From an uncultured Gammaproteobacteria bacterium (GTDB lineage: Bacteria > Patescibacteriota > Microgenomatia > 2-02-FULL-39-11): 64,000 nucleotides of DNA. The translations under genes were made by a program, and so were the position numbers. Positions 900 through 60,917 of the stretch are shown in pieces; within the stretch, counting starts at the first letter, position 1; each line of letters starts with the position of its first letter. Below the pieces are notes generated by a model. That model saw only the letters and a list, made by a program, of their open reading frames with translations, made no database searches and was not told the origin of the DNA. The stretch lies in NCBI GenBank assembly GCA_964354025.1, contig CAYGXQ010000005.1, positions 3,366-67,365 of the forward strand, given 5' to 3'.

Positions 900-1060
900 A
901 ATATTCCGGTATTCCGTATTCCGGAACTATTCCGTATTCCGAGACGGTCCTTTAATTGATTGTCACCACCTTCCGGCTTCCGGAAATGAAGAAGTTTCAA
1001 TTATCGCCTGACGGATGACATCAAACGCGGACTGAAGTCCGCTACTCCGGAAATCTATAC
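900..1060. promoter_or_regulatory. Candidate regulatory array upstream of gene 1130-1957
   Basis: Five TATTCCG heptamers (902-941), TTCCGGAA palindromes (919-926, 978-985, similar at 1045-1052) and hairpin GCGGACT-GAA-AGTCCGC (1027-1042) seen directly. Confidence 0.35.
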
Positions 1061-1129: not shown

Positions 1130-1957
1130 ATGAAAAAAAAGCTGCTCGTTGTTGTTTTATTGGGGATTCTTTTTTTGCTGCCTGTAGCTCTATACGCTTT
1201 GAAAAACGCTACTGGCGATACCCGCTCCAAAGCAAGTAATCCTAATATCCCTCCGCAAAACATCACCATCACTAATCTCAATGCTGAAGGTTTCACCGTC
1301 AACTGGCTGACAACTAATCCAACTGTTGGCAAAATATATTACGCCAAAAAAACAGATTTTGACCGGATCAAAATCCCCAACCTGATGGCGGTAGAAAGTT
1401 TTGATACTGATCAATCGCCGCCGAAAGGATTTCTACCAAATACCCACAGCGTCACTTTAACCGGACTTTCCCCCCTCACCGAATATGCCGTCTTCATCTG
1501 CAATTCAAACAGCTGCAACAATAACCAGTTATACGGCATGGGTATCGCCACCGCTACCGGCAGCGCTGTCCGGCAAGGTATTGGCATCCCGATGAAGGTG
1601 AAAACACTCACCCCGATAAATCCGCCTGAAGAATCCAAACCGATTTTCGGCACTTTGAAATTTACCAACAAAAAGATACCAACCTCAATACTAATATTTG
1701 CCACCTTGAAAAAAGGCGCTTCAGTTTCCGCGCCTTTATCCGTCTCGATATTGCCGACTGCCGTCCAGACCGAAATTCCCTTTTCCATTGAACTGGCCAA
1801 CGCTAAACTGGCAGACCTGACCGGCAACTTCCCTATTGAAGAGACTGACCTGATCACGGTCAAAGCCTTTTGGGTCGAAGACGCTAAAGTGAAAACTAAG
1901 CAATTTGTCTATCCGGTTTCCCAAAGTTTCCCGATTAAAGACATTTTGGCATTATGA
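1130..1957 (+). CDS. Secreted or membrane-anchored protein with a fibronectin-III-like segment
   Basis: N-terminal MKKKLLVVVLLGILFLLPVALYA signal; an ITITNL..GFTVNWL..Y motif typical of FN3; ATGA overlap with the next gene. Confidence 0.55.
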   Translation: MKKKLLVVVLLGILFLLPVALYALKNATGDTRSKASNPNIPPQNITITNLNAEGFTVNWLTTNPTVGKIYYAKKTDFDRIKIPNLMAVESFDTDQSPPKGFLPNTHSVTLTGLSPLTEYAVFICNSNSCNNNQLYGMGIATATGSAVRQGIGIPMKVKTLTPINPPEESKPIFGTLKFTNKKIPTSILIFATLKKGASVSAPLSVSILPTAVQTEIPFSIELANAKLADLTGNFPIEETDLITVKAFWVEDAKVKTKQFVYPVSQSFPIKDILAL

Positions 1958-4900
1958 CAGACGTAACCAATCCAATACAAATAAATCCAGTACAACCTAA
2001 TCCGGTCCAATCGCCCGCTCCATCTGAAGAGAAACCGGCAGGATCGAAAATATCCGTGAAAAAGATCGTCCTCAGTCTGTTTATCATTATTATTATCTGT
2101 CTCCTTGTCCCGATATTAGTGCTCTTTTTAAATCCTTTCGGGATACTGACAAACCGTATCAATCAGGCAAAAACAATAACAACTGAGAATAAAACCTCTT
2201 TTGACCGGCTGATAGACAGGGTTGTCCTGATACCGGAAACATTTACCCAAAAATTTATACCGGTGAAAAAACCGGCTGACAGTTTTTTGAACAGAGAGAT
2301 CAAGTCATATTACGAGAATAAAGATAAACCGGATCAAATAAAAATCATTTACAGCAACCAGCCGGAACTGACTACTCCTCAAGCAACTGACAGCGGCAAT
2401 GTCCGGGGAATCAGTACGGACAGCCGGGGCGAAGTCCTCGCGGCTGTCAACCAGTTTTATGTCCAATATATGCCCATGCCCGGCAAGGCCAACTTTTCTT
2501 CCAACCAATTTAACGGTTCCGCTTCTTTAAGTTATCCTCTCAACCTGCCGAAAGGTCCGGGCGGTTTTACTCCCGGTGTCAGCCTGAATTATTCTTCCGA
2601 AAGCGTCGATGCACTGATGCAGCAGACGGATACCAAAAAACTGCAGTATTTTGCCCGGCAAAGCGGTCCGGTTGGTTTGGGCTGGTCGCTTTCCGCCGGC
2701 GAGGGTTCGGTAAATGTGGACCGTCATGGCAGTGAAAATCCCTGTTCATGGAATTATAAATTATCTTTCTCCGGCGGATCGGCGGAATTTTTCAAAGTCG
2801 ATGACAACGGCAATCCGATTACAAGTTGTAAAGACGCCAACACGGTCAGCCCCGAATGGCTAAATTCCAAAAAATGGCGCACCAACCCGGAGCTTTTTCT
2901 CAAAATCGAGCAGGGCTGGGCCAGTGATTTATTCCCCGGCGACTCTGATTTTTCTTTCTCCAGAACCAGGGTCGGCGATGCACAAGTCAACAATCCCGGC
3001 CAGGACGCCCGGGAAGAAAGATTTGATATCTGGAAAGTGACTACTCCGGACGGCTCCGAATACGTCTTCGGCAACGGTAAACAGGAACATTACAGCCAGA
3101 GAGCTCAACCTCAGGGCGATACTTACATCTTTATGATAAAAGGTTTAAATGACAGCCAGATAAATACCTGGAAACAATACCGCGTGAAAAATCTCTTCGG
3201 GCAAAAAATGATTTACCGCTATAATCCGGTTTGGAACGCCTCGGCTCTATGGGTCGGTGAGGGTAACGTTTCCGTCAGTAATCTTGCCGGTATCGAATAC
3301 GGAGTAAACAAGATCGAGTTCCTTTATAACCAGGCAAGAAAGGATACCGGACTGGTAAAAGAAAACGGTCTTTATTGGGCGCAAAATCCTTATGAATACA
3401 CTTATATCGCTCCATATGCCCTTTCGGCCATCAAGGTCTATTCCAAAACCAGCCAGCTTTTGAAAACCTATGAATTAACATATTGGGACGGAAACGCGAC
3501 CGGGAACGGGGCATGGATAGATGCAAATTCGACTGAAGTCGGCCAGCCATGCGGCGGATTCTGGGACTCGGCTCACCCAATCACATATCAGGTAAAAGGA
3601 TATTATAAAATTAACAATGACCAAAATGTCCAGTCATATCACTTAGTCCTCAAATCAATTAAGGAAACTACGCCTTCCGGTGCTTCCCTGCCACCCCAAA
3701 CTTTCACCTATCAAAAAGTTGATGATATTATCAATATGCTTGATCCTTCTCCGCCCGCGGGCAAAAGCAAAGGCTGCTGGCAAATTACTCCCAAAACCGT
3801 AACAAACCGCAACAGTATCTATATCCAAACCGCCGATAACGGCTTCGGAGGCAAGACTGAATATATTTTTGAGACAGCCAGAAAAGCCGACCGGATTTAT
3901 TTGCCTGAGGGTACTAATTTCTTGGATAACGGTTACGACAATCCGGTATTTGATTATAATACTGTTATTGATGACGCGTCGAAAACTGCCTTTTACGAGA
4001 AGTATGAAAGGCCGTTTCGGCAAAGAGGCTTAAGAAGAGCGCGCCTGCAAAGAATCAAAGTCTCCGACGGCCTGAATAATTTTAATGAATCATATTTTGA
4101 TTATGGTACGGCAGAACCGAAAACTGTCCTGAAGCAGATAGGCAAAAGTTACGCTTATGTGGAAAATACTTATGATGATGATTTTGTCGGTTACAGCGGT
4201 GTAACCGTCTATTCCGGTAAGAAAAACCTCGCTCTCAACCCAGGCAGCATTAACTCCTGGGCTTCCAAATCAAAAACTTATTATCACCAGATACTGACTT
4301 CTTCCGGCTGCGCCAAAAAAGATCCCCGGGCCGGTTCCAACTACCGCAGTCAGGGATTTGACGAAAACGGCATCATCTCGGAAAGTGTCCAATACAGCCG
4401 TTTTAAAAATTGGACTGATGTTACCAATAACATCAATTCACTTCCCAATCCAATCGGTGAATCCTGTGCAGACATTCCTCCAAGACCGGTGGTTTTTCAA
4501 TTAAAAACGGATTCTATCACCGCAAAACAGGGTGAAAACGTAGCTTCTCTTTTTGACGCTTGCACGACCACACATCCTTCTTACTGTAATATTATCCAGA
4601 CCGAAGTGAAGAATTATGATTGGGATCCAACGAGTAATACCAATCCGGAAAAAAACAAATTCGGCGCTCTTATAAAGACTGAATCATATTTGAGGAAATA
4701 CGAAAGTGGATCTTATGTCCTGAATAAACTGGCCAGCTCCCAGATCAACTATCTGTCACAGGGCTATAAATACGGAGACTCAAGCACCTACCTTCTCAAT
4801 AAACCTTATGAAACCTGGATTAATAACCCTGTTTCTGACGGTAAAAGATACAAATGGCAAAGAACGTATTATGATAATCAGGCTTTCGGGATACTGAACG

Positions 4901-7900
4901 GAATCGGCAAAAATCTCACCACGAAAACAGAAACCTGTCTCTATGAGAATGCGACATGTAAGATTGCCGGTCAATCGGAAATCCTGCAATATGATAGCTA
5001 TGGAAACGCTCTTCAGGTAAAAGACGGTCAGGGCAATATCAGTAAAACTTCCTATGACGGCACATATAATGCTTATCCGAAGAAATCCATTAATGCTTTA
5101 GGCCAATTCAGCACCACCGAGTATGACTTTGAGACCTCTATCTCTGCTACCAACCCGACCAATCTCGGCTTACCAGTATCAGTAACCGATATTAATGGTC
5201 TAGTTTCCAAAAGCACTTATGACGCTTTGGGCTGGCTGAAAGCTGTTTATAAACCGGGTGACACAACTCCATCAGCAGAATTTGAATATCATCTTAATGA
5301 AAACTCACTCTATGGCGTTCCGATTGCCGTCATGGCCAAAGTCCGGACAGAAAAAGGGACGACTGATGAGGCAAAAATTCTCAAGACTTATGACCTTTAT
5401 GACGGTCTGGGCAACAAAGTCCAATCCCAATCGCTCATACGCAATAATAATATTGACCAATTCATTACATCATACGCCGACGTCGACTACACCTGGAATC
5501 AAAATAATCCCGGAGTCAAAACTATCGCCAGCGAAAATTATGACACGGCAAATTTTGGAAAGCTCAACACCACAATGGTCGGGACGACGACCGGAACCGC
5601 CAAGAAATCTTATGCTTTTGCCAATCTCTCCGGCCAGAACTGGAAAAGCATTGATATGAACGGTAACGTCAGCTACTCATACAGCAATCCGGAAGATTTC
5701 ACCGCTAAAACCGTTTCCCCCAACGGTCTGATCGCTTATGCCGCTGCTGATCCGGTTGCCCGAACACAAACCGGTTCAGTCTGTAAAGACATTGTCAGCG
5801 GTTATACTCCCAATGACGGTACTTTTTTAACTGATAAATTCCTACGCAGCTGTCCCGTCTCCGGAGCAAAAATCTCCACCAAGACCGTCTCCGATTTCAT
5901 GGGTAATACCACCTATGTGTATGACAATCTAGGGATCACCAGCGGCGGAAAGCCTTTAACTACCAATATTTATGACTCACTCGGCCGGCTGCGAACCTCA
6001 AATGATGCTGATTTGGGTATTTCAAACGTCGTCGATTTCGATCTTAACGGCAATATTTTAAAAACTACAAACGCGGCCGGGACCGAATTTAGAACTACCT
6101 ATGACGCTCTTAACCGTCCGTTTGAAAAATATGTCGCTGGACAGCTTCGAAATAAATTCTATTATGACCAACCGTATGATGGCCGGATTTGCGGTACTAC
6201 TAGTACTGCTACTAAAGGCAAACTTTGCAAAAAAGAAGAATGGGGCAATGATCCTTTAAGTCCTTCTTCGCAGGGTAATCTGATCCTTAAATATCTCAAA
6301 TATGACGATCTGGGAAGAGTGCTTGAGGAAAGAGTCAATTACGGCGGGACGCTGGCTTCAAAATTCGGCGGCAGCGACTTTGTCACTTCTTATACTTATG
6401 ACAATATCGACCGGGTTTTGACGGTAAAATACCCCGATTTTGCCGGCTCGGGGATTCCCCCAGAAACTGTCACCAATACTTATACGGGGCCTTATCTTTC
6501 GATGGTCAAAGGGGATAAAAATTATGTTAACAGTTTAGCTTATGATTACTTGGGACGCTTAACTAAAAGATCCTTAAATGGAGGAACCGTTTACCCGATA
6601 ACTGAAGACTATGCTTATGACGTCAACAGAAGGCTTTCACAAATCCAGGTCACCAACGTTTCAAAAGATCAGGGCACTTTCAAAGGGGTTAATTTGGCTT
6701 ATAACAATTATGACAGTGCTACCGGCAATATTTTAGGTATTATGGACAACGCTATCTACGCTAACCCGTTGCTTTCCAAAACCATGAATTATAAATACGA
6801 TAATCTTTCCCGACTGGTTTGCGCTGATTCGAGCACTAATTGTAATAATCCCCAGTTTGCCAATGCCCAAAACACATATTCATATGACGATCTGAATAAT
6901 TTATTAAACAAAAAAGAAGATAAAAATTATGCTTTTGCTATCGACAGCAACTTCCCCTACCACGGAGTGAAAAAAGTGACCGCCGGAACTACTCCCGGAC
7001 CAGGTATTTCTTATGATAACCTCGGCCGGATGACTTCCTATACCGTCCCCGGAGGATACCAGATCGATATCCCGAAAGCTGATGGCTTTGACCTCAATTC
7101 CGGCAAGCCGCAAAAGATAGTTTATACCAATCTGGCTGCTATGCCTACTTTAGCATCAACTCCGATTCCCACCGTCACCAAAACTCCGACTCCGACGGCT
7201 ACCAAAACACTGACGCCGACCACGACCGCCGCCGCACAACCGACACTCACTCCAACCAAAACGCTTACACCAACTATTACCAAATCACCCACTCCGACGA
7301 TAACCGGTCAGGCAGTCAAATCACCCACGCCGACTGTCACCAAAACACCCACACCGACAGCAACAGGTGCGGCTGTCAAAACTCCGACTCCGACTACTGC
7401 TCAAACCCAAACCGGAAACATTTTGACTCTTCAACCTTCTCCGGCCGTAAATAACAATCTATCCCTTAATACATCTCTTTCGCCTTCTGCGATCATGACC
7501 AAAGTCAGAAGCACCTGTTCCGTCACCGAAAACAGTAAACTTTCGTATAACACGGCATCAACAAAATACACTTATTCTGTTGTCGTCATCCTGGGTAAAA
7601 CTTATTCATTTAACAACTTCAAGATTCCCACTATTCCCCCTAATGGAATATTTTCCATTTCTTACTCGGGCGGGAAATCAAACTGCCAGGTCAGCTTCCC
7701 CGCCGCCTTAGGCATCCAGGTCCAAGCCCAAACTCCGAGCAACGCGGTCACCGAAGTCTATTATTACGACGGCGAAGGAAGCAGAATCATGAAAGCGCTG
7801 GTAGGTTCTGACGGTAAACTGTCTAATGAAGTCCTTTATATCAACCAATATCTGGAAAAAGACAGAGGCGGCAAACTTTTCCGGAAAAATTATTACGCCG

Positions 7901-8778
7901 ACGGCAAACTGGTCGCGGTCAGAAATTTTAATTATCTGGACAGTGAACCGGCCATCCCCGCTATCACTGCCGTGCCAACTGGCCAATATAACCCAATTTC
8001 AACTATTACAGCCGGAGCCTATGCCACTGCCGCTCCCTACCGTTCACCGACTCCGTTGCCGCCCGGTGCCGCTACTCTTACCCCAACTCTCCCCCCCGGA
8101 ATCTATCTGAATTCCGGCGGGAATATTTCAACAACAGTAGGAGGAAACGGGCAATTTAAATCCTGTACTTCAGTATGTAATGCTAATAATGGTAAAGTTT
8201 GCGTCAGTGTCGGAACCGATATTTACGGTTCAAATGGGATGCTTAAAACTTGGGATGCCTCAAATGGAGGTACCGGAGAATGTTTTGACGGAAATAACAG
8301 CGGTACGCCGATTAATTGTACTGATATTATTACTGACAAAGGAGGCCGGCCCAAAGCCTGCCCGGACAGCGGACATCTGACCAACTGGACCAATTGCAAC
8401 TGCGCCAATCCTTCTCCTACTGTCACGCCCACAAAAATTCCTCCTACCGCTACCCCCACTAAAACACCCACGCCTACTCCAGCTTTAGTGATAGAAATAA
8501 ATGATGGAACGAAAGCAACAACTTGTACAACTCTCTGTTTAAACTCAACCAAAGCTCCAGGTTCCTCTTGTATCAGCGTAGGAATAAACGCTCAAGCTAA
8601 TGATCGCTACATGATGACTCTGGGTAAAGATGATATCTATGGTCAGTGCATAACATACTCAGATGAGAATCTTAATTGTTCCTCAATTATGGGAAATAAA
8701 TTTAGTATGAGCAAATCTTGCAGTAATACTCTCGGTGAAACTCATATCGCCAACTGGACTAAATGCAAATGTCAATAA
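1954..8778 (+). CDS. Giant (2274 aa) membrane-anchored YD/RHS-repeat protein with a Thr/Pro linker and C-terminal Cys-rich modules
   Basis: Repeated YDxxGR(L/M) motifs (YDSLGRL, YDALNRP, YDDLGRVL, YDNIDRVL, YDYLGRL, YDNLSRL, YDNLGRMTSY); N-terminal TM helix; TPTPT linker; no DPxGL-type RHS core seen. Confidence 0.85.
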   Translation: MTDVTNPIQINPVQPNPVQSPAPSEEKPAGSKISVKKIVLSLFIIIIICLLVPILVLFLNPFGILTNRINQAKTITTENKTSFDRLIDRVVLIPETFTQKFIPVKKPADSFLNREIKSYYENKDKPDQIKIIYSNQPELTTPQATDSGNVRGISTDSRGEVLAAVNQFYVQYMPMPGKANFSSNQFNGSASLSYPLNLPKGPGGFTPGVSLNYSSESVDALMQQTDTKKLQYFARQSGPVGLGWSLSAGEGSVNVDRHGSENPCSWNYKLSFSGGSAEFFKVDDNGNPITSCKDANTVSPEWLNSKKWRTNPELFLKIEQGWASDLFPGDSDFSFSRTRVGDAQVNNPGQDAREERFDIWKVTTPDGSEYVFGNGKQEHYSQRAQPQGDTYIFMIKGLNDSQINTWKQYRVKNLFGQKMIYRYNPVWNASALWVGEGNVSVSNLAGIEYGVNKIEFLYNQARKDTGLVKENGLYWAQNPYEYTYIAPYALSAIKVYSKTSQLLKTYELTYWDGNATGNGAWIDANSTEVGQPCGGFWDSAHPITYQVKGYYKINNDQNVQSYHLVLKSIKETTPSGASLPPQTFTYQKVDDIINMLDPSPPAGKSKGCWQITPKTVTNRNSIYIQTADNGFGGKTEYIFETARKADRIYLPEGTNFLDNGYDNPVFDYNTVIDDASKTAFYEKYERPFRQRGLRRARLQRIKVSDGLNNFNESYFDYGTAEPKTVLKQIGKSYAYVENTYDDDFVGYSGVTVYSGKKNLALNPGSINSWASKSKTYYHQILTSSGCAKKDPRAGSNYRSQGFDENGIISESVQYSRFKNWTDVTNNINSLPNPIGESCADIPPRPVVFQLKTDSITAKQGENVASLFDACTTTHPSYCNIIQTEVKNYDWDPTSNTNPEKNKFGALIKTESYLRKYESGSYVLNKLASSQINYLSQGYKYGDSSTYLLNKPYETWINNPVSDGKRYKWQRTYYDNQAFGILNGIGKNLTTKTETCLYENATCKIAGQSEILQYDSYGNALQVKDGQGNISKTSYDGTYNAYPKKSINALGQFSTTEYDFETSISATNPTNLGLPVSVTDINGLVSKSTYDALGWLKAVYKPGDTTPSAEFEYHLNENSLYGVPIAVMAKVRTEKGTTDEAKILKTYDLYDGLGNKVQSQSLIRNNNIDQFITSYADVDYTWNQNNPGVKTIASENYDTANFGKLNTTMVGTTTGTAKKSYAFANLSGQNWKSIDMNGNVSYSYSNPEDFTAKTVSPNGLIAYAAADPVARTQTGSVCKDIVSGYTPNDGTFLTDKFLRSCPVSGAKISTKTVSDFMGNTTYVYDNLGITSGGKPLTTNIYDSLGRLRTSNDADLGISNVVDFDLNGNILKTTNAAGTEFRTTYDALNRPFEKYVAGQLRNKFYYDQPYDGRICGTTSTATKGKLCKKEEWGNDPLSPSSQGNLILKYLKYDDLGRVLEERVNYGGTLASKFGGSDFVTSYTYDNIDRVLTVKYPDFAGSGIPPETVTNTYTGPYLSMVKGDKNYVNSLAYDYLGRLTKRSLNGGTVYPITEDYAYDVNRRLSQIQVTNVSKDQGTFKGVNLAYNNYDSATGNILGIMDNAIYANPLLSKTMNYKYDNLSRLVCADSSTNCNNPQFANAQNTYSYDDLNNLLNKKEDKNYAFAIDSNFPYHGVKKVTAGTTPGPGISYDNLGRMTSYTVPGGYQIDIPKADGFDLNSGKPQKIVYTNLAAMPTLASTPIPTVTKTPTPTATKTLTPTTTAAAQPTLTPTKTLTPTITKSPTPTITGQAVKSPTPTVTKTPTPTATGAAVKTPTPTTAQTQTGNILTLQPSPAVNNNLSLNTSLSPSAIMTKVRSTCSVTENSKLSYNTASTKYTYSVVVILGKTYSFNNFKIPTIPPNGIFSISYSGGKSNCQVSFPAALGIQVQAQTPSNAVTEVYYYDGEGSRIMKALVGSDGKLSNEVLYINQYLEKDRGGKLFRKNYYADGKLVAVRNFNYLDSEPAIPAITAVPTGQYNPISTITAGAYATAAPYRSPTPLPPGAATLTPTLPPGIYLNSGGNISTTVGGNGQFKSCTSVCNANNGKVCVSVGTDIYGSNGMLKTWDASNGGTGECFDGNNSGTPINCTDIITDKGGRPKACPDSGHLTNWTNCNCANPSPTVTPTKIPPTATPTKTPTPTPALVIEINDGTKATTCTTLCLNSTKAPGSSCISVGINAQANDRYMMTLGKDDIYGQCITYSDENLNCSSIMGNKFSMSKSCSNTLGETHIANWTKCKCQ

Positions 8779-9220: not shown

Positions 9221-9276
9221 TTAGCGTTTAGCTCCTAGCGTTTAGCGTTTCGTTTATAACTAGACGCTAGACGCTA
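9221..9276. repeat. Composite heptamer repeat: (TAGCGTT)n half followed by (CTAGACG)n half
   Basis: tagcgtttagctcctagcgtttagcgttt...ctagacgctagacgcta. Copies of the same family lie at 37037-37107 (inverted) and, split, at 37781-37813 plus 37959-37990. Confidence 0.7.
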
Positions 9277-10554
9277 TTTAAATAATTTTCTAAATCTTTC
9301 TTCTTGTTTATACGGTCCTATTATAGCAAGGTTCAGCCGGTTTTGTCCAAAGATATTTTCCGCAACTTCCTGTACTTGGGCCGAAGTCACTTTATCAATT
9401 TTCTCCATAATTTCCTGCGGAGTGCGGATATTTTTTTCCAAAAGTTCGGCCGTCCCGAAAAGCGAAGCGACATTGTGACTGTCTTCCAGTTCGAGAGTCA
9501 GTCTGCCTTTGAGATATTCTTTGGCTTTCCCCAATTCCTCTTCGGAAACCAGTTTATCAGCCATTTTTTGGTATTCGCCAATAATTACTTTGATCGCCTC
9601 ATCAATCCGGCCCACATCCACTCCCGCCTGGGTGACGAAATTACCAACGTCTGTGTATTTTTCTGTAGCTGACCGGACATAATAAGCCAGTCCCCTCTTC
9701 TCCCGCACTTCGATGAAAAGCCGGCTTGACATCCCGCCGCCCAAAACGCTGGTCAAAACTCCCAGAGCGTATCTTTCCGGATGAACCAAAGGATAAGCCC
9801 GCACTCCCAGACAAAGATGCGCCTGTTGGGTGTCTTTGTATTGGACCAGCAATCCCGGTACCTTCTGACCATCATCAACAGTTTCCGCTTTCTCCACTTT
9901 CCTCTTCCCCCACTCCCCAAAATATTTTTTCATTAAATTTATAATTTGTAATTTATAATTTGTAATTTTGTTAATACCTCCCGCAATCACCACCACCGTA
10001 TTCCCCGGCGTATACAATCTGTCCATATAACTAACGAAGTCTTTTCTTTTCACTGACGAAATCACTTCTTTTTTTCCGATAATGTCTCTGCCCAATTTCG
10101 TGTCGCCGTAAAGGAGATTTTCGTAAAGGTCGCCCACTTTTCTCATCGGCAAGTCCTCATACATATTGTATTCTTCGATAATGACGCCTTTTTCTTTAGC
10201 AATCTCTTTTTCATCCAATCGGGAGTGTAACAAAATATCTGATAATATATCAATCAATAAAGGAAGATGTTTCACTGCTGCTTTTATATAATATCCGGTA
10301 TGATCTTTGCTGGTGAAAGCATTGGACTCACCGCCGATGCCATCAACGATCGAGGAAATTTCAAGAGCCGTCGGCCGTTTCTTTGTTCCCTTGAAAGCCA
10401 TGTGTTCAAGAAAGTGCGACAATCCATTGATCCCCTTTTCCTCGAAGCGTGAACCAGCACCGACCAAAACCAAAACCGTCACCGACTCCACCGAAGGCAT
10501 GGGAACAGTGATCAGCCGGAGACCGTTAGTGAGGGTATGTGTTTGGTAGTTCAT
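9274..10554 (-). CDS. M16 (pitrilysin/insulinase) family zinc peptidase
   Basis: Inverted zinc motif HFLEHMAFKGT (HxxEH); length 426 aa; carries an in-frame heptamer tract at 9935-9975. Confidence 0.85.
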   Translation of the reverse strand: MNYQTHTLTNGLRLITVPMPSVESVTVLVLVGAGSRFEEKGINGLSHFLEHMAFKGTKKRPTALEISSIVDGIGGESNAFTSKDHTGYYIKAAVKHLPLLIDILSDILLHSRLDEKEIAKEKGVIIEEYNMYEDLPMRKVGDLYENLLYGDTKLGRDIIGKKEVISSVKRKDFVSYMDRLYTPGNTVVVIAGGINKITNYKLQIINLMKKYFGEWGKRKVEKAETVDDGQKVPGLLVQYKDTQQAHLCLGVRAYPLVHPERYALGVLTSVLGGGMSSRLFIEVREKRGLAYYVRSATEKYTDVGNFVTQAGVDVGRIDEAIKVIIGEYQKMADKLVSEEELGKAKEYLKGRLTLELEDSHNVASLFGTAELLEKNIRTPQEIMEKIDKVTSAQVQEVAENIFGQNRLNLAIIGPYKQEERFRKLFK

Positions 10555-35988: not shown

Positions 35989-37002
35989 ATGATTACTTTT
36001 CTCAAAAAACGCTATAAGTTGATCCTCATCATCGCCCTCCTGGTTTTCGGCGGCTTTCTCTGCTACCGTAATTTCTTCGCGGCCAAAAACGGCAAGAAAG
36101 TCGACTCCGTCAAAGTCAAAAGAGGCACGCTTGAGGAAATACTGACCATTTCAGGCCAAGTTGAAGCCGACGAGAAAGTAACTCTCCGTTTCCAAACCTC
36201 CGGCAGACTGGCCTGGGTAGGGGTCAAGGAAGGCGACTACGTCAAAAAGTATCAAAGTATCGCCTCGCTGGATCAGCGCGAGATGAAAATGAACCTCGAT
36301 AAATACCTCAATACCTACATGAGCGAAAGATGGGATTTCGAGCAGACCAGAGATGATTATAAAGACACGTTCATTACCGACAAAATCAAGCGGATCAAGG
36401 AACAAACCCAGTTTGACCTGAATAATACGGTGACCGATGTTGAGATCAAAAACCTGGCCATCGAACTGGCCAATATGTTTACCCCGATCGAAGGGATAGT
36501 CACCCGGGTGGCTTCCCCTTACGCCGGGGTGAATGTCACCGCTACCCAGGCGGAATTTGACATCGTCAATCCCAAGACGGTCTATTTTTCTGCCCTGGCC
36601 GACCAGACGGAAGTGACCGAACTCTTCGACGGCAAGCCCGGCGAACTGACTCTCGATGCTTATCCGGAATCAACCTTCAGCGGAACGATCAAGAACATCT
36701 CTTTTAACCCCAAAAGCGGCGAAACCGGCACTGTCTACGCGGTGAAGTTTCTTTTTGACGGCGACAATACCGGCTACAAATACCGGTTGGGCATGGCCGG
36801 TGATTTGAGCTTTGTCACCAAAAGAAAAGAAGACGCCTTATACCTGCCGACAAAATTTGTCAAAGATGATAAATCAAAAAAATATGTCCAAATAAAGAAA
36901 AACGGCCAGACGGAAAAAGTTTACGTGGAAACCGGCATGGAGACGGACAGCAGTATCGAGATTACGAAAGGCGTGACGGAAGGAACGATTGTTTTCGATT
37001 AA
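35989..37002 (+). CDS. Efflux periplasmic adaptor (HlyD/MacA family)
   Basis: N-terminal TM; biotin-lipoyl-like and beta-barrel pattern; first gene of an ABC transporter operon. Confidence 0.7.
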   Translation: MITFLKKRYKLILIIALLVFGGFLCYRNFFAAKNGKKVDSVKVKRGTLEEILTISGQVEADEKVTLRFQTSGRLAWVGVKEGDYVKKYQSIASLDQREMKMNLDKYLNTYMSERWDFEQTRDDYKDTFITDKIKRIKEQTQFDLNNTVTDVEIKNLAIELANMFTPIEGIVTRVASPYAGVNVTATQAEFDIVNPKTVYFSALADQTEVTELFDGKPGELTLDAYPESTFSGTIKNISFNPKSGETGTVYAVKFLFDGDNTGYKYRLGMAGDLSFVTKRKEDALYLPTKFVKDDKSKKYVQIKKNGQTEKVYVETGMETDSSIEITKGVTEGTIVFD

Positions 37003-37036
37003 ATACCACACTCTATAAACATAAGAAAATATAAGA

Positions 37037-37107
37037 GCGTCTAGCGTCTAGATACTAGCGTCTAGTTAAGAAAAACTAAACGCTAAACGCTAGAAGCTAA
37101 ACGCTAA
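37037..37107. repeat. Composite heptamer repeat (inverted orientation) immediately upstream of the ABC ATPase gene
   Basis: Reverse complement equals ttagcgtttagcttctagcgtttagcgtttagttttt..ctagacgctagtatctagacgc. Confidence 0.7.
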
Positions 37108-37111
37108 ATTC

Positions 37112-37783
37112 ATGATACAACTCCAACACATCCATAAAGAATACAAGCTTGACGGGGATGTTTTCGTCGCCCTTAAAGACATCAATTTAAAAATCTCAGA
37201 CGGCGATTTTACGGCCATCGTCGGGCCATCCGGCTGCGGCAAATCCACCCTCATGCACATCATCGGCCTTTTGGATAATCCCTCAAGCGGAAAAATCACC
37301 ATTGACGGTAAAGATGTTTCTAAAATCACCGACGACGACCTATCCAAACTCCGCAACGAATTTGTCGGCTTTGTTTTCCAGCAGTTTAACCTGATAAATA
37401 AACTGACGGTAGCTGAAAATATTCTCCTGCCGACAATTTACTGCCGCAAAAAACTGGATTTTGTCCCCCAGCAAAGAGCCATGGAGCTGATGAAACGCTT
37501 TGAAATAGACTCCAAAGCCAAATCATACCCCAACAAGCTATCAGGCGGTCAGCAGCAGCGCGTCGCCATCGCCCGGGCTCTCATCAATAAGCCGAAACTT
37601 ATCCTGGCTGATGAGCCGACCGGAAACTTAGACTCCAAAACCGGTGAAAAAATCCTTGCTCTTTTGAAGGAGCTAAACGGCCACGACAAAATCACCATCG
37701 TCATGGTCACCCACGACAACCACATCGCCGAAAGGGCTAAAACTCACATCCATGTGCTGGATGGGGAGATCGTTGATAATTAG
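37112..37783 (+). CDS. ABC transporter ATP-binding protein (MacB/LolD type)
   Basis: Walker [10 protein letters not shown]; signature [15 protein letters not shown]; Walker [12 protein letters not shown]. Confidence 0.9.
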
Positions 37784-37813
37784 CGTTTAGCTTCTAGCGT
37801 TTAGCGTTTAGTT
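37781..37813. repeat. Composite heptamer repeat, first half (TAGCGTT)n. A perfect 33 bp inverted repeat of 37074-37106
   Basis: tagcgtttagcttctagcgtttagcgtttagtt; overlaps the stop codon of the ATPase gene. Confidence 0.7.
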
Positions 37814-37850
37814 AATGACAGTAGTTATGCAATGAATATTGATTTAGATT

Positions 37851-37944
37851 GTCATTGCGATCCCGAGTCCGCCAGCTGGCGGATCGAGGGAGAAGCAATC
37901 CCGTCCGAGATTGCCACGGCCAGTCAGACTGGCCTCGCAATGAC
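37851..37944. mobile_element. MITE-like element with 10 bp terminal inverted repeats GTCATTGCGA / TCGCAATGAC, carrying the 16 bp palindrome TCCGCCAGCTGGCGGA
   Basis: TIRs at 37851-37860 and 37935-37944; palindrome at 37868-37883; internal gaagcaatc / gattgcc inverted repeat. Homologous copy at 55998-56078. Confidence 0.6.
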
Positions 37945-37958
37945 ATAGAATAGCATGA

Positions 37959-37990
37959 CTAGACGCTAGCTTCTAGACGCTAGACGCTAA
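37959..37990. repeat. Composite heptamer repeat, second half (CTAGACG)n, separated from the first half by the MITE-like insertion
   Basis: ctagacgctagcttctagacgctagacgctaa. Confidence 0.65.
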
Positions 37991-37993
37991 TTT

Positions 37994-40633: not shown

Positions 40634-40774
40634 ATATAACTATCACTTATGCTTTTATCACAAAAAAGCATAATTGTCAAATAGGTAATATTGAGGAGGT
40701 TATATCAACATCTCAAAGGACTGTCCCCTATTTGTACTATGTCCCCTATTTGTACTATTTGTTTATTATTCTCC

Positions 40775-41257
40775 TTAATCATTTAACCATGTACAATTTG
40801 GTGAGGTAGCACCGTACTTTTTTCCACATTCATTTCTAAAAAATTGATAAATTCCATCTTTTTCTTCCCGCTTAAGGGGCTTTCCCTCTATGCCTTCCAC
40901 CTTAGATATAACTGATTTACAATTTGCAACTGTATTATTCCCATTCAAGCAATTTATTCCTGCCTCTTTGAAGTTCTTTATTATCTCTGCTGTTTGTCCA
41001 AGCTGATTACCTGCGTCTTGTATTGCACCACCCGCTGTTTGACCTGCCTGTACGATTTGTTGTCCTGCTTGTTGTACCGGAGTGCTCGGAGAAGAAGTAG
41101 AAGATCCTCCCCCACAGGCTATAAGCCCACTATCGGTTTTCCCGCTTCTCACTGGATGATCACCAACATCACATGATTTTGCAAAATATTTTATTGGTTC
41201 TTCTGCTGGTGGTGCTGGAGCACAACTGCTTAGTATACTTGCTGCCAATCCGGCCAC
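40775..41257 (-). CDS. Putative secreted protein or lipoprotein (GTG start) overlapping the 3' end of toxin gene 1; candidate immunity protein, or the result of a frameshift
   Basis: ..AASILSSC lipobox-like sequence followed by a Cys-containing Gly/Gln-rich region; 89 nt out-of-frame overlap with 41169-41900. Confidence 0.4.
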   Translation of the reverse strand: MAGLAASILSSCAPAPPAEEPIKYFAKSCDVGDHPVRSGKTDSGLIACGGGSSTSSPSTPVQQAGQQIVQAGQTAGGAIQDAGNQLGQTAEIIKNFKEAGINCLNGNNTVANCKSVISKVEGIEGKPLKREEKDGIYQFFRNECGKKYGATSPNCTWLND

Positions 41258-41900
41258 TACTAATGTTGTACCAAAATTTAAAACTGCTTAATGTTGCACT
41301 GCCTAGGATCACCGCGGCGCTCACCAAGGCATCCTTTCCAGTAATTGCTGCTCCTTTGCTTCCTGTTCTCTCAAAAAATTTAGGATAAGATTCCTGCGCT
41401 TCTTTACCTACCCATATACCCTGTCCGGTATTATTTCTTTTTCTGCAGTTTTCCTCTTCTCCATAAGCACATTCCCAATTTCCTGAAGGATCATTTCTTA
41501 TAATGGGATTTCCTTCGACGTAGGCAAACCGGTTTGGCGAGTCCGCCAGCTGGCGGACGGAGTCCGCGGAAACGAAACGGGAAAGAACAGGATCGTAGTA
41601 GCGGGCGTTATAGTAAGAAAGAGTTGTTTTATCATCTTTAATTTGACCAGTGTAGGCACGTTCAGTGGCGGGATTTGAGGAATTTGGGGAACCGTAGGGA
41701 GAATATTTGGATTGGGAGATATTGTTTCCTTTATCATCCGAGACAGCAATCACTGATCCCAGATTGTCGGTATGAATATAGTAAGTAGATTCGGTGTAGG
41801 AAGCGTGAACAGGATGAGCAATGATAAATGATAAATTATAAATTACAAATGAAATTACAAATGACAGAATGCAAAATTTAGAATTTAGTAATTTAAACAT
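41169..41900 (-). CDS. Sec-signal + RHS-core + short variable tip protein (polymorphic toxin cassette 1)
   Basis: N-terminal hydrophobic signal ending AHPVHA/SY; RHS core motifs YYIHTDNLGSVIAVSDDKGNN...YNARYYDPVLSRFVSADSV...NPIIRNDPSGN. The last ~30 codons look like read-through in a wrong frame. Confidence 0.7.
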   Translation of the reverse strand: MFKLLNSKFCILSFVISFVIYNLSFIIAHPVHASYTESTYYIHTDNLGSVIAVSDDKGNNISQSKYSPYGSPNSSNPATERAYTGQIKDDKTTLSYYNARYYDPVLSRFVSADSVRQLADSPNRFAYVEGNPIIRNDPSGNWECAYGEEENCRKRNNTGQGIWVGKEAQESYPKFFERTGSKGAAITGKDALVSAAVILGSATLSSFKFWYNISSGRIGSKYTKQLCSSTTSRRTNKIFCKIM

Positions 41901-41938
41901 TTAATTTAGCATTTATAATTTATAATTTGTAATTTATT
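41822..41938. repeat. A/T-rich heptanucleotide-periodic tract spanning the start codon and signal peptide of toxin gene 1
   Basis: gataaat gataaat tataaat tacaaat ... tataatt tataatt tgtaatt; 7 nt periodicity over about 115 nt. Confidence 0.7.
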
Positions 41939-41947
41939 AACAGTATG

Positions 41948-42666: not shown

Positions 42667-42802
42667 TTCTAACTTTCTATATTATAGAATATTTGGATAA
42701 ATGTCAACTTCTATAAGCGAACGCAGACTAAAGTCTGCTCTTCCAAATAAAATCGCGTTTGAAGCCATCCGGCAGCCGACGAAGAAAAGGCAACGAAGAA
42801 GT

Positions 42803-43538: not shown

Positions 43539-44789
43539 TTATGGAGTCACCAATGTATTTATCCATAACTTGGTTAAATTGGGATAATGAAGATTATATT
43601 TTTCTGCTGTACCAATATTCGCGACCCATTTACGCCAAACATCATTTCTCCCACTATAACTAAAAATCCATGATTGTCCTTGATGTATCTCTGGCATAAA
43701 CCAACCTGTAAGTTGGCAGGCCGCACTTTCCTTTATGTCTTGTTGGTAATCAGAAATGGAATTATCAATATAATAAGAACCATAATCTTCTTGCGGTCCA
43801 CTCTTTTGTTTATTCGATTTGGGAGGAATCGCCAACTTACCATAAATATTTTCCCAATATACAGAATCTTTTGTTGCTGCTTCTTGGTAGCTTTCTTCAT
43901 TAAAATTCTTCAACATAAGATAATGCGTTGCTTCATGAACAAACTCGTGTTCCTGCTGCCATTGAGGTAGTGTAAATGTTCGTGGATCCAAAAAAACTGA
44001 TGAAGGGAAATATTCACCTTCTCTTTCGAAACTATTATTTAAATAATTTTCGCCTATATCTGTTCGATTAATATACAATCCCTTCAGGATATTTGGATTA
44101 TGGGTTATATATATTATTCTTTCGATGCTTTTTTCAATCGATTTAATTTCATTTGTACGCCATGCCCACATACTTCGATAGTATGGATTATTTTTATAAC
44201 CTGGCCATCTATCCGGATTATTTATATCTTCTTCTTTTATTTCCTGGTCTACATTATAAGCAAAGGAAACACCATATTTTTTAGAAATTTTTTGTGCTAA
44301 TTGGAATGATTCATTTGTATCCTTTACATAAGATTCAAATTGTAAATCTATACCTTCATCTGCCCTTTGTCCTCCCGGATCATTCATCATGATCGGATTA
44401 CCACCCACATAGGAGTATCTGTTCAGCTGGTCCGCCAGCTGGCGGACGCTATCAGCCGAAATAAATCTGGATAAAACTGGGTCATAGTACCTCGCGTTAT
44501 AATATGCCAGTTGGGTGTTCTTATCCGCAATTTGACCTGTATATTCTCTTTCAGTTGTAGGTTGTAAGTTGTAGGTTGTAAGTTCATTTCCATATGGAGA
44601 ATACTTGGTTTGTGAGACATTGTTTCCTTTATCATCTGAGACAGCTATCACTGACCCCAGATGATCCTGATGGATATAGTAGGTGGTTTCGGTGTAAGCG
44701 GCGTAGACCGGAGAAATGAATAATCCAATAAACAAATAACCCAATAATCCAATGAATATAACAATGAAACAATGTAGCAATTTATCCAT
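43539..44789 (-). CDS. Sec-signal + RHS-core + HExxH metallopeptidase-like tip (polymorphic toxin cassette 2)
   Basis: Signal peptide; core YYIHQDHLGSVIAVSDDKGNN..YNARYYDPVLSRFISADSVRQLAD..NPIMMNDPGGQ; tip contains HEFVHEATH. Confidence 0.75.
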   Translation of the reverse strand: MDKLLHCFIVIFIGLLGYLFIGLFISPVYAAYTETTYYIHQDHLGSVIAVSDDKGNNVSQTKYSPYGNELTTYNLQPTTEREYTGQIADKNTQLAYYNARYYDPVLSRFISADSVRQLADQLNRYSYVGGNPIMMNDPGGQRADEGIDLQFESYVKDTNESFQLAQKISKKYGVSFAYNVDQEIKEEDINNPDRWPGYKNNPYYRSMWAWRTNEIKSIEKSIERIIYITHNPNILKGLYINRTDIGENYLNNSFEREGEYFPSSVFLDPRTFTLPQWQQEHEFVHEATHYLMLKNFNEESYQEAATKDSVYWENIYGKLAIPPKSNKQKSGPQEDYGSYYIDNSISDYQQDIKESAACQLTGWFMPEIHQGQSWIFSYSGRNDVWRKWVANIGTAEKYNLHYPNLTKLWINTLVTP

Positions 44790-44790
44790 A
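44712..44790. repeat. Heptamer-periodic tract spanning the start and signal peptide of toxin gene 2
   Basis: aataatc caataaa caaataa cccaata atccaat gaatata acaatga aacaatg tagcaat. Confidence 0.6.
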
Positions 44791-44791
44791 T

Positions 44792-58841: not shown

Positions 58842-60917
58842 TTACATCTTCTCTACCGTTTCGATCCCGAGGATGAAAAGACCTCTTTTGATAAGGTTTG
58901 CCGTAGTTTGAGTCAGAACCAGACGGAAATCGGATTCCAATATCGTGTGTTTCTGGTAAAAGAGGCTGTAGCTTTGCGCCAGCTCAAAAAGATAAGCACA
59001 GAGAAGGTGCGGCGAGAAAGCCGCGGCCGCCTCGGCGACCACCTCCGGGAAGCGGTAGAAAAGACGGAGAAGTGATAACTCTTCAGTATTAGGTATTAGG
59101 TATTTGGTATTAAGTATTTTTTTGTTTTCTTCTTTTATACCTGATACCTGATACCTGATACCTGATACCTTCTCAGCTTTTCTCATCACGCTCATACACC
59201 TCGCGTAGGCATACATGAGGTACGGCCCGCTGTCGCCTTCGAAGGAAACTGACTTGCCGAAGTCGAAGACGATGTCATTGCCGATGTTGTTTTTGAGAAG
59301 GGCGTATCTGATGGCTCCGAGGGCCACTTTTTCCGCGATTTCTCCAATTTCGGTTCCCCCTTCTGCTTTTCTGTCTGTTTTTGCGATAATCTCCAAAACT
59401 CTTTTTTTAGCCTCCTCCAGAAGCCACTCGAAGGTGATGACGTTGCCCGAGCGCGAAGACATCTTGCCTTCCGGCAGCCTAACCATGCCGTGGGCGATGT
59501 GATAGGCTTTCTCCCCCAATTCCGGCTCGATCTTTTTCATGGCCGCCTTCACCACTTTGTAATATTCGTCTATTTCTTTACCGAAAACATTAATTGATAA
59601 ATCGTATTTGAAATCTTGATATTTGGCCATAGCCAATCCCAAGTCTTTAGCCTCATAGGTAGGCAGACCGAGTTTATTGACAAAAACCCTGGTATGCAGG
59701 CCGTCCTGTTCACCCCGGTAGACGACTCCCCCTTCGCTTTTTTCCAAAACGCCCAGCTTCAAACCCTTTTCCACCAGCTTCATCCCGTACTCGCCCACCC
59801 ACGACTCCGGATAATAGCCGTCGAACTTCGTTCCCAGCCTTTTGTAGATCGTCTCAAAATATTCCAGGCTCCACTTCAAACCTGCCCCGTAGACCTCCCT
59901 GACCTCCTCCAGACGGTCTTCTTTACCATGAACATACTGTTTATAGTCAATGATCGGCTGCCAGCCTTTGTCTTTCTTCAAAATCTCCTGCGCGGCCACG
60001 TAAATAAGGGAATTGATCTCCTTAACCTCTTCCGCAACCTTCTTATCCTCATCAAACTTTATCGTCCCCAAAGCATAACCTTCCCCAAGCAGTTTCTGCC
60101 TTTCGGATATGGGTAACTTCCCAAGCTCGTGAATGTATTTTCTTAATTCTTCTAAATATTCTTTCCCTTTCAGAATTTGTAATTTGTCATTTGTAATTTG
60201 TAATTTAGCTAAAAGTCCGTATAGACTTTTAGCGATATGCATCCCTACATCTCCGTAAAAATCTCCCCGCCAGACGGTTGCTCCGCAGGCTTCAAACAGC
60301 CTGGCGATAGCCTCGCCGATGAAGTTGGAATACATATGCCCGAGGTGAAACTCCTTAAAAGGGTTGGGGTCTGTATATTCAACGGCAATTTTCTTTCCCG
60401 TCATTTGGGCTGTTATGACCGGATATTTCATATCTAGCACTCTCTCCATCTGACTGATAATGCATGGGGTAGCCACAACCAGATTTAAGAAGCCACAGCC
60501 TGCAATTGATACATTCTCCAGGATACTTTTTGGAGAAATAGTCAGATCCGAAGGTACATAACTATCAGCTTTAACTGCTATCGTTTGATCTTGTCCTATA
60601 TATTCATCTATTTTTCGTTTTAGCTTCTCCGCCAACTCAATCGGCTTCATTTTTAGTCTTTTAGCCATGATCATGGCGATATTAGAAGAATAGTCCCCAT
60701 AACCTTTATTTATAGGATGTTCGATAAAAATAGCGGAAAAAGGGATTTTTTCGCCTGTTTCCCCCAAAACCTCCCCTACGGCCTGGCGGATGACGCACCG
60801 CAGCTGGAAAGCAAGAGAGTGCGGATCATCGGTGATGATCTTGGGGAATTTCCTTTCTGTTCTCGGATCAATGGCAAATTTCATAATATATCCTGACACG
60901 CTGGGTGACTTTCTCAA
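58842..60917 (-). CDS. argS: Arginine--tRNA ligase (class I)
   Basis: VEYTDPNPFKEFHLGHMYSNFIGEAIARL (HIGH region) and KMSSRSGNVITF (KMSKS region). Long, at 691 aa, with an in-frame heptamer tract at 60174-60206. Confidence 0.9.
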   Translation of the reverse strand: MRKSPSVSGYIMKFAIDPRTERKFPKIITDDPHSLAFQLRCVIRQAVGEVLGETGEKIPFSAIFIEHPINKGYGDYSSNIAMIMAKRLKMKPIELAEKLKRKIDEYIGQDQTIAVKADSYVPSDLTISPKSILENVSIAGCGFLNLVVATPCIISQMERVLDMKYPVITAQMTGKKIAVEYTDPNPFKEFHLGHMYSNFIGEAIARLFEACGATVWRGDFYGDVGMHIAKSLYGLLAKLQITNDKLQILKGKEYLEELRKYIHELGKLPISERQKLLGEGYALGTIKFDEDKKVAEEVKEINSLIYVAAQEILKKDKGWQPIIDYKQYVHGKEDRLEEVREVYGAGLKWSLEYFETIYKRLGTKFDGYYPESWVGEYGMKLVEKGLKLGVLEKSEGGVVYRGEQDGLHTRVFVNKLGLPTYEAKDLGLAMAKYQDFKYDLSINVFGKEIDEYYKVVKAAMKKIEPELGEKAYHIAHGMVRLPEGKMSSRSGNVITFEWLLEEAKKRVLEIIAKTDRKAEGGTEIGEIAEKVALGAIRYALLKNNIGNDIVFDFGKSVSFEGDSGPYLMYAYARCMSVMRKAEKVSGIRYQVSGIKEENKKILNTKYLIPNTEELSLLRLFYRFPEVVAEAAAAFSPHLLCAYLFELAQSYSLFYQKHTILESDFRLVLTQTTANLIKRGLFILGIETVEKM

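Follow-up and report, generated by a model that had tools for sequence, protein, structure and literature searches.

Short tandemly repeated repetitive (STRR) heptamers have been known in cyanobacteria since 1990. Heptamer repeats of GGGAATC in Xanthomonas and GGGGA(C/T)T in Nostoc, with a perfect 26-mer as the Nostoc example, are described by Rehm et al. 2015 (PMC4692102), who state that detailed literature on heptameric repeats is absent. In the xanthomonads 89-93% of the arrays lie between genes and many form inverted pairs; such pairs are few in Nostoc (PMC4692102). TAACTGA direct repeats, in 2-6 copies, occur in Beggiatoaceae, Cyanobacteria and Bacteroidetes; one orientation contains stops, the other is translatable (LSVISYQ), and the patchy distribution across phyla led to the suggestion of horizontal spread (MacGregor 2015, PMC4679880). 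As cited in both papers, Mrazek 2007 attributes the over-representation of heptamer simple sequence repeats (SSRs) to polymerase slippage. The heptanucleotide-array class as such is already known. The present analysis concerns a 64,000-nucleotide stretch (the window) of contig CAYGXQ010000005.1 from a Microgenomatia bacterium, in which two solo heptamer arrays lie in frame within the genes for an M16 (insulinase-family) peptidase and arginyl-tRNA synthetase (ArgRS, argS). Noteworthy here are translated copies in essential genes across phyla, a quantised array size, a fixed phase and insertional doublets.

Both genic tracts are A/T heptamers of about 4.7 units, with the sequence and reading frames claimed in the original prediction. 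The M16 tract had been placed at 9935-9975; it is real, but the array proper covers 9936-9968 and the remainder is a degenerate tail. The array is 33 nt long (4.7 copies), in frame and stop-free, and two units alternate in it rather than one being repeated, so that Tandem Repeats Finder (TRF) reports a perfect 14-mer, AATTTATAATTTGT, in 2.4 copies; the peptide context reads ..GGINKITNYKLQIINLMKKY.. The first ArgRS array (site 1) is likewise 33 nt, in frame and stop-free, within ..LLAKLQITNDKLQILKGK.. Tract-encoded peptides are KLQITNDKLQI, KITNYKLQIINL and VSGIRYQVSGIK, and the similar peptide that had been noted at a toxin N-terminus is indeed present, ORF 48265..49344 beginning MNDKLQITNYKF. 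The two genes had been said to carry the same tract. Both arrays are of AATTTGT type, but this is one of many unit families, at least eight in the window. Overlooked earlier were the alternation of two units in M16, two further ArgRS arrays (together site 2) and the extent of the class as a whole.

Period-7 arrays number about 17 in the 64 kb, with at least 8 unit types; 14 have 4.3-4.9 copies (TRF), and nearly all are 30-34 nt. Stringent period-7 arrays number 8 against 0.0 in shuffles, the remaining periods from 4 to 12 giving 0-1, and among arrays of at least 24 nt, 10 have period 7 and none has period 5, 6, 8 or 9. Per 100 kb, there are 15.6 such arrays in the window and 13.5 in relatives from the Microgenomates, against 1.3 in control loci taken without selection (234 kb), a 12-fold difference between window and control. 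The pattern AATTTRT x3, with at most 2 mismatches, matches the window 17 times (overlaps counted) at 5 places, and 100 shuffles contain no match. The 2281 nt that include the M16 tract and the hairpin next to it are identical in an independent assembly (Logan ERR3804374); together with the shuffles, this rules out chance or an assembly artefact. About 10 of the 17 arrays overlap ORFs. Solo arrays lie inside the M16 gene, ArgRS site 1 and two RHS-tip paralogs; inverted doublets lie inside ORFs or at their 5' ends at ArgRS site 2, 49248-49329 and 41820-41937, and between genes at 9221-9276, 37036-37108 and 37780-37989.

Head-to-tail 7-nt units, an excess of period 7 and several dispersed units are three defining features that the tracts have in common with heptanucleotide arrays (STRRs or the heptameric long SSRs of Mrazek et al. 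2007). They also share with these repeats several families per genome and chromosome-wide dispersal, and the exact AATTTGT tract itself occurs in Nostoc, Tolypothrix, Microcoleus and Umezakia. They differ from STRRs in copy number, held tightly at 4-5, in having several translated copies inside essential genes, and in their host: the ArgRS and M16 homologs come from Microgenomates/Gottesmanbacteria-like bacteria of the candidate phyla radiation (CPR) and not from a heterocystous cyanobacterium, so that the arrays are not STRRs sensu stricto. The Xanthomonas and Nostoc arrays are similar in their length of about 26 nt, in having copies inside ORFs (a minority there, 7-11%), in their closeness to gene ends, in paired inverted copies (Xanthomonas), and in a conserved position with variable length and sequence between related genomes; however, they are G-rich and were studied as quadruplex formers with genic translation unanalysed, whereas the arrays here are A/T-rich or mixed and have no G-quadruplex potential (PMC4692102). 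The TAACTGA repeats share heptamer direct repetition, stop asymmetry and phyla overlapping those of AATTTGT, but favour one heptamer, are mainly 5' untranslated and have a proposed role in translational regulation, in contrast to the many units and the copies within housekeeping enzymes seen here (PMC4679880). No literature on CPR heptamer arrays or on KLQITNY-type peptides was found, searches on such arrays and on KLQITNY, ITNYELR and LSVISYQ leading only to MacGregor 2015. The two tracts do not have the defining features of repetitive extragenic palindromic (REP) sequences and their hairpin-forming doublets (REPINs), the solo tracts not being palindromic, nor those of contingency loci or of miniature inverted-repeat transposable elements (MITEs).

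The M16 and ArgRS tracts are translated, judging from stop avoidance, synonymous changes in relatives, and ordered helices or a disordered loop in AlphaFold2 (AF2) models. Units that are stop-free in sense (AATTTGT, ATACCTG and AGTTGTA on the plus strand, the genes being on the minus strand) are near-perfect inside genes; TTAGCGT and CTAGACG, which contain stops in both orientations, are intergenic only. Four arrays of stop-prone units do occur in ORFs, and each deviates from its consensus exactly at the stop-making (TAA) phase. M16 unit 4 reads TTA CAA in place of TTA TAA, unit 2 of the ArgRS site 2 right arm, a variant (AATACCA), yields ACC AAA instead of the ACC TAA expected from the consensus, and the arms at 49248 and 41820 read TTA TCA. 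Relatives differ in length only by multiples of 3 nt. Since phase variation in some pathogens is driven by heptanucleotide SSRs, the tracts could in principle be contingency loci acting as frameshift on/off switches. This is scarcely credible here: the hosts are apparently essential housekeeping genes, each present once in the window, the two independent assemblies are identical, changes between relatives keep the frame, and copy number is held at 4-5.

Comparison with orthologs supports the original view that neither tract is conserved enzyme sequence. The M16 peptidase matches PDB 3hdi (E=2e-77), relative to which the tract is a 6-aa insertion within a hypervariable segment flanked by AGGI and KYLGxW; the shortest orthologs read AGGIK-ESKDLV, and these and 3hdi are 6-7 residues shorter at the site. 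Homologs P0122 (88% identity), P0125 and P0124 (both 72%) contain a peptide of the same kind, and the remaining orthologs have different periodic or hairpin-type inserts. When a footprint is defined as residue i equal to residue i+7 over at least 4 positions, the M16 homologs contain 6, clustered at residues 195-206. When the variable segment is left out, a neighbor-joining (NJ) tree groups the query with P0122 and P0125 in a single clade whose members all carry the tract; P0124 has the query-type peptide yet clusters with proteins that do not, and is thus incongruent. Relative L002 retains the Tyr and Leu of the tract via synonymous changes (TAT/TAC, TTA/CTC), and in L001 the tract is longer by an irregular 12 nt with the frame kept.

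At none of the ArgRS tract sites do orthologs or solved structures match the query; they are shorter there or differ. Footprints number 27 in 22 of 120 ArgRS homologs, compared with about 1 in shuffles and 1-3 for periods 5, 6, 8 and 9, and they cluster at query residues 238-248, 580-609 and 661-663. Three ArgRS sites gather such inserts, and at site 1 orthologs have other 7-aa-periodic peptides. The units are diverse (KLKTQNS, KFKVQNA, EIRNPKS, NYELRIK, NTKYKIL, GIRNQES and others). At the DNA level, site 1 of the window aligns unit by unit with that of L126 (69% core identity), including a variant third unit, AAATGxx, and site 2 aligns, likewise unit by unit and at equal length, with that of L125 (77%), whose version is degenerate; compared with the homologous arrays of L125 and L002, which are degenerate, those of the window are more perfect. 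At site 1 the window has (AAATTAC)x5 and L004 a perfect (AAACTCA)x5, over the same 35 nt and between the same flanks, each unit differing at the same three positions. At site 2, L003 (93% core identity to the window) contains an unrelated period-8 insert, AATGAAAC, in common with L004 (75%), L126 and L127 (68% core identity) contain identical perfect (AAATCCG)x4.6 arrays, and the P0036 ArgRS has an ITNDKLQMTN tract here and not at site 1. The same peptide was not seen as an ancestral segment in unrelated lineages; distant orthologs have no segment or have other units. The two solo tracts are thus not recent but partly old and vertically inherited, the M16 tract within a clade extending to 72% protein identity and ArgRS site 1 as far as the 69%-core ortholog.

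GC-rich palindromic mini-inserts, translated in frame, are nested in the heptamer or octamer tracts of some relatives: P0005 at ArgRS site 1, L003 (937-1053) and L127 (~9745-9885) at ArgRS site 2, and P0145 in M16. Examples of their peptides are KLKT-SRISGIPSVAGQNSLLRQGFGGQA-KLKT, ..FDSAQGRQ.. and CHPERSEGPHG..SSLRMT. Elhai and colleagues are said to have described, in 2008, structured small dispersed repeats of 21-27 nt inserted within tandem heptamers of cyanobacteria, and by that description the mini-inserts of P0005, L003 and L127 are analogous.

The structural models place the segments in different environments. In the AF2 model of the M16 peptidase (overall predicted local distance difference test score, pLDDT, 91.6) residues 196-207 form a turn and the N-terminal half of helix 200-212, with pLDDT 94-95; in that of ArgRS (overall 85.3) site 1 is helical, with pLDDT 90-94, while the loop formed by site 2 stays below 50. 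Alignment to orthologs had been proposed as a check for lineage-specific insertions in surface loops. Lineage-specific units at hypervariable sites are indeed what is seen, but the M16 tract and ArgRS site 1 are confident helices in the models and are predicted to be ordered parts of the fold, not floppy loop decorations. A selected protein motif, in which a heptad-like 7-residue periodicity is favoured and the DNA periodicity is a by-product, would fit these helices and the conservation of the M16-clade peptide through synonymous changes. It is nonetheless highly improbable, as the period is 7 nt and not 21 nt and is perfect in the DNA itself, as in the (AAACTCA)x5 of L004; moreover, arrays are also intergenic, units vary freely between orthologs, and most orthologs and all solved homologs have no such segment.

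Repeats that generate new protein segments have a precedent in Borg elements, where the genic units are reportedly multiples of 3 nt and the arrays long. Borg tandem repeats create new intrinsically disordered protein regions, and the repeats are nearly lacking from the host (PMC9879509). As here, DNA-level tandem repeats arise in ORFs, evolve fast and add new, often disordered, protein segments; the window arrays differ in their 7-nt unit, a length limit of about 35 nt, a chromosomal location and a cross-phylum distribution.

The hairpin doublets are copies of a single element and represent derived insertions. In the window, spacers of 109 and 210 nt, both of which carry doublets, separate the genes for HlyD-like, ABC and MacB proteins (35989-39202). 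The 109-nt block (37003-37111), which includes 31 nt of non-repeat sequence, is absent from the close relative L001, in which the HlyD stop abuts the ABC start (TAA directly followed by ATG) and the spacer between ABC and MacB contains other heptamers. Among further relatives (45-76% identity), 14 of 15 have every scorable operon junction overlapping or separated by at most 8 nt. The 37-kb spacers are therefore insertions and not remnants. A 32-nt arm containing an imperfect unit, TTAGCGTTTAGCTTCTAGCGTTTAGCGTTTAG, has two exact copies and one with 2 mismatches, and the partner arm occurs twice; from these shared internal imperfections it follows that the arms were copied and did not arise by independent slippage. 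A metagenome scan for the imperfect arm gave 0 matches and so does not bear on dispersal beyond this genome. The 37-kb insertion shows neither an evident target-site duplication nor terminal repeats, and a candidate duplication, TAAAT at both ends of the block, is unconvincing since it belongs to the array unit. The doublets fold strongly (z about -4 to -11). At ArgRS site 2 the arms 59137-59170 and 59086-59118, which together encode VSGIRYQVSGIKEENKKILNTKYLIPNT, form a hairpin with a free energy of -28 kcal/mol in sense and -37.7 in antisense (z -8.7 and -11.3). The inverted-doublet hairpin feature of REP/REPIN sequences is found only in the doublets at 9221, 37036, 37780 and 59086-59170. Like REPs, bacterial interspersed mosaic elements (BIMEs) and REPINs, the doublets have inverted arms of about 33 nt, form stable hairpins between operon genes and are multi-copy with shared variants. 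Unlike these elements, their arms are internally 7-nt periodic, the solo genic tracts are non-palindromic, and no REP-associated tyrosine transposase (RAYT) was found among the 20 window ORFs scanned, REPs moreover being extragenic by definition.

Several further features of the doublets were observed. The inner arms 37076-37107 (-) and 37780-37811 (+) form a perfect 32-nt inverted repeat around the whole ABC ATPase gene (37112-37783), which could base-pair within the mRNA or lead to inversion of the gene. A GC-rich, strongly folding element of ~147 nt (37812-37958) lies in the loop of the TTAGCGT/CTAGACG hairpin that separates ABC ATPase and MacB; its ends are a terminal inverted repeat, TTGTCATTGCGA...TCGCAATGACA. 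L001 does not have the element, and Rfam gives no match to it. In the doublets at 9221, 37036, 49248 and 59086 the arms differ at one position per unit, so that one strand forms G.U pairs and the other C.A mismatches; 37780 does not follow this pattern and 41820 does so only marginally. In five of six doublets, the strand that folds more stably is antisense to the genes around it.

Another explanation is that the arrays are enzyme-mobilised non-autonomous mini-elements (REPIN/RAYT-like, IS200/IS605-like or dependent on a reverse transcriptase) and the genic copies are transposition events. The two inverted hairpin arms are REPIN-like, dispersed copies share imperfections, and the doublets are derived insertions in operon junctions; in addition, the insert types found at ArgRS site 2 and in M16 do not follow the protein trees, and the same family occupies different sites across lineages, as in P0036. 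Despite these points such an element is distinctly unlikely. First, Pfam searches of 20 window ORFs revealed no transposase, RAYT or reverse transcriptase. Second, the 37-kb junction has neither target-site duplication nor terminal repeats, and neither terminal inverted repeats nor a target-site duplication, as in MITEs and insertion sequences, are present at the genic tracts. Third, the solo arrays have no secondary structure, and dozens of unrelated units would each need recognition. Fourth, the genic tracts persist vertically over long distances. Folding of the solo M16 and ArgRS site 1 tracts is no better than that of shuffles (z -1.3 to +2), and a hairpin function for them is rejected on this ground; no Rfam match lies in or near the arrays, the only one being tRNA-Ser at 57905. 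The original prediction of a repeat family that colonises coding sequence largely holds for the class, which occurs between genes, at other coding sites and in unrelated essential genes across phyla, with doublets that are derived insertions. It does not extend to mobility of the two solo tracts, for which no target-site duplication or terminal repeats, and among the 20 ORFs scanned no enzyme, were found.

The AATTTGT unit is widespread. A search for the exact 21-mer (AATTTGT)x3 in species-representative genomes yields more than 120 genome stretches, compared with roughly one expected by chance; the matches listed are a lower bound. The hosts include Bacteroidota, Acidobacteriota, Ignavibacteria, Chloroflexota, Thiotrichaceae and many Patescibacteria, in addition to the four cyanobacterial genera already named, and the median tract has 4.6 copies. 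Run lengths at period 7, counted without a threshold, are bimodal: there is a second peak at 24-35 nt, which periods 6 and 8 do not have, and beyond it the counts fall steeply, from 33 runs at 33-35 nt to 6 at 36-38 nt. The TRF threshold was considered as the cause of the 4-5-copy mode and is rejected by this count. Among 126 listed tracts with unrelated flanks, 71% start in three adjacent phases (43% expected), and 67% of listed tracts end at ..AATT(T) (29% expected); lengths peak at 27-28 and 30-34 nt, and few tracts exceed 34 nt. From the phase bias and the length peaks, the typical tract consists of 4 or 5 whole GTAATTT units, and both window tracts fit. A further 142 period-7 arrays, built from dozens of units, occur at the loci of the listed matches. 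Of 125 listed tracts, 29 lie inside ORFs at a depth of at least 40 residues, and Pfam-confirmed in-frame hosts are GlmS, TopA, PriA, IleRS, MltG, UvrD, ValRS-like, LeuRS, Pol III alpha and LigA.

A side observation concerns L040 (1118-4747, minus strand) from a Sungiibacteriota metagenome-assembled genome (MAG), where an IleRS contains a PF00300 histidine-phosphatase domain between its catalytic and anticodon-binding domains and about four heptamer-type peptides.

A further explanation is that the arrays are pure in-situ microsatellites that grew by slippage from a chance 7-nt seed, so that nothing was inserted and the similarity between loci is convergence. Slippage is the cause to which heptamer SSR excess is ascribed in Mrazek 2007, as cited by the two papers above. 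Conserved flanks nearly spell the units, as in M16 and in L126 and L127, where identical perfect arrays exist despite 68% core identity, and the M16 tract of L001 grew by an irregular 12 nt. However, start and end phases are strongly non-random and length is limited at about 34-35 nt, one internal imperfection is common to three hairpins, and a block with 31 nt of non-repeat sequence has entered a zero-spacer junction. Slippage by a single unit would also shift the coding frame, which makes stepwise growth and homogenisation difficult. Pure in-situ growth is therefore rather unlikely, although it is the least implausible of the alternatives.

On a modest balance of probability, the tracts are instead translated passengers of a DNA-level heptanucleotide-array class that are inherited vertically, re-homogenised and filtered by selection. 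Each array consists of whole units, mostly 4 or 5 (28-35 nt), of a 7-nt sequence that is one of many, and is either solo or part of a hairpin-forming inverted doublet. Arrays would enter DNA independently of the host gene, as observed for the doublets and presumed for the solo tracts. Arrays would then persist by vertical inheritance over long periods, during which slipped-strand pairing and/or gene conversion between arrays may keep or restore periodicity and could swap the unit type at constant length. Genic arrays would be kept only where the sense strand is stop-free (or the stop-making unit mutated), the frame preserved and the site tolerant of extra residues. In M16 and at ArgRS site 1 the translated segments, of about 11 residues, would form a helix, and at ArgRS site 2 a disordered loop, as passengers that have no catalytic role and are presumably neutral for the enzymes.

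Several points weigh against the passenger account. No enzyme that makes arrays was identified within the 64 kb, and for the two solo tracts there is no close-range presence/absence pair that would prove insertion. The conserved codons GAC AAA ATT that precede the M16 tract (GACAAAATT for ACAAATT) are nearly the unit, AGA AAA TCC (AGAAAATCC) precedes (AAATCCG)n in L126 and L127, and GCT AAA TTA at ArgRS site 1 also resembles its unit; the sequence of the genes themselves may thus have been the source from which arrays grew. Neutrality is assumed, and a structural role could have been gained by the ordered helices. The AATTTGT tract also occurs in 47 viral contigs, many of them AT-rich giant-virus MAGs. 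These abound in microsatellites with a variety of periods and are thus less informative on the bacterial mechanism, and generic slippage may account for part of the cross-phylum count.

Table 1. Heptamer arrays and their host genes in the window (positions of the 64,000-nucleotide stretch)
Feature	Position	Strand	Description
Intergenic array	902..941	.	(TATTCCG)x6, TRF
Intergenic doublet	9221..9276	.	(TTAGCGT)n-loop-(CTAGACG)n in the interval between ndk and the M16 gene; imperfect arm of the two ~37 kb copies, 2 mismatches
M16 (insulinase-family) peptidase gene	9274..10554	-	426 aa, tract host; homologs with PF00675 and PF05193
M16 heptamer array	9936..9968	-	(AATTTAT/AATTTGT)x4.7 on + strand; sense ACAAATT/ATAAATT; encodes K196-L207 (KITNYKLQIINL)
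Doublet, same TTAGCGT/CTAGACG family, reversed	37036..37108	.	In 109-nt block between HlyD-like and ABC ATPase genes; z -7 to -9
Third TTAGCGT/CTAGACG doublet copy	37780..37989	.	Arms 37780-37811 and 37959-37989; between ABC and MacB genes
Composite inverted pair of A/T heptamers	41820..41937	-	5' end of RHS-tip-like ORF 41169..41900; weak PF03527 match
(AGTTGTA/GGTTGTA)x4.6	44553..44584	-	Inside RHS-tip ORF 43539..44789, between PYGNE and EREYTGQ
(CTTNACG)x4.4	46549..46579	-	Paralogous RHS-tip ORF 45522..46853; equivalent site, different unit
Inverted array pair	49248..49329	-	5' end of ORF 48265..49344; AAATTAT type and AATTTGT x3.7; in frame MNDKLQITNYKFGILTFVISFIIYNLSFIISSSVFA; z -5.4 (+), -3.4 (-)
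ArgRS gene	58842..60917	-	691 aa, three arrays; homologs PF03485, PF00750, PF05746; PDB 2zue, 5yym
ArgRS site 2, second arm	59086..59118	-	GTATTAG type on + strand, imperfect; encodes KILNTKYLIPNT
ArgRS site 2, first arm (sense order)	59137..59170	-	(ATACCTG)x4.9 on + strand, perfect; encodes VSGIRYQVSGI
ArgRS site 1 array	60174..60206	-	(AATTTGT)x4.7 on + strand with one CATTTGT unit; encodes K238-I248 (KLQITNDKLQI)

In two paralogous RHS-tip cassettes (Table 1) an array occupies one RHS core motif position (PYG.E-[tract]-EREYTGQ) with unrelated units, and the CTTNACG array at 46549-46579 keeps one AGTTATA unit at its edge. The doublets at 49248-49329, for which translation is inferred from the frame, and 41820-41937 read in frame as Sec-signal-like N-termini, MNDKLQITNYKFGILTFVISFIIYNLSFIISSSVFA followed by AD and MFKLLNSKFCILSFVISFVIYNLSFIIAHPVHA followed by S, with stop-avoiding variant units. 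On sequence grounds this suggests that repeat DNA may have been recruited as signal peptides at both places. The three orphan RHS-tip/toxin cassettes at 41169-46853, with a PIN-domain gene (41948-42397) nearby, are on the strand opposite to a 2274-aa RHS-repeat protein with Pro/Thr-rich linkers (1954-8778). Outside the ORF set used, perfect short tandem duplications occur at 48170-48216 (19-mer x2.5), 40722-40758 (18-mer x2.1) and 735-766 (16-mer x2).

A broader proposal is that a conserved DNA-level process, common to CPR, Cyanobacteria, Bacteroidota, Acidobacteriota, Chloroflexota and others, writes quantised 4-5-unit arrays of fixed phase (limit ~35 nt), including into tight operon junctions and essential genes. 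Conversion between arrays would overwrite units, and the translated copies would be a steady source of protein segments: helices, disordered loops and possibly the Sec signal peptides at 49248-49329 and 41820-41937. As a whole this is speculative and more doubtful than not by some way. Because one slipped unit destroys the frame, repeats with units that are not multiples of three are expected to be purged from essential genes. Such repeats nonetheless lie in ArgRS and M16, and the same tract lies in TopA, LigA, PriA, UvrD, Pol III alpha and several other aminoacyl-tRNA synthetases, in many phyla. If the regularities are genome-wide, the 4-5 whole units, fixed phase, limit of ~35 nt, constant-length unit swaps and zero-spacer insertion would constrain the origin of bacterial heptamer arrays, and the question of that origin would become testable by phyletic correlation. 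For CPR bacteria themselves, the tracts inflate and diversify protein lengths, and recurrent low-complexity peptides such as KLQITNY, ITNYELR and KLKTQNS can mislead homology searches and gene calling.

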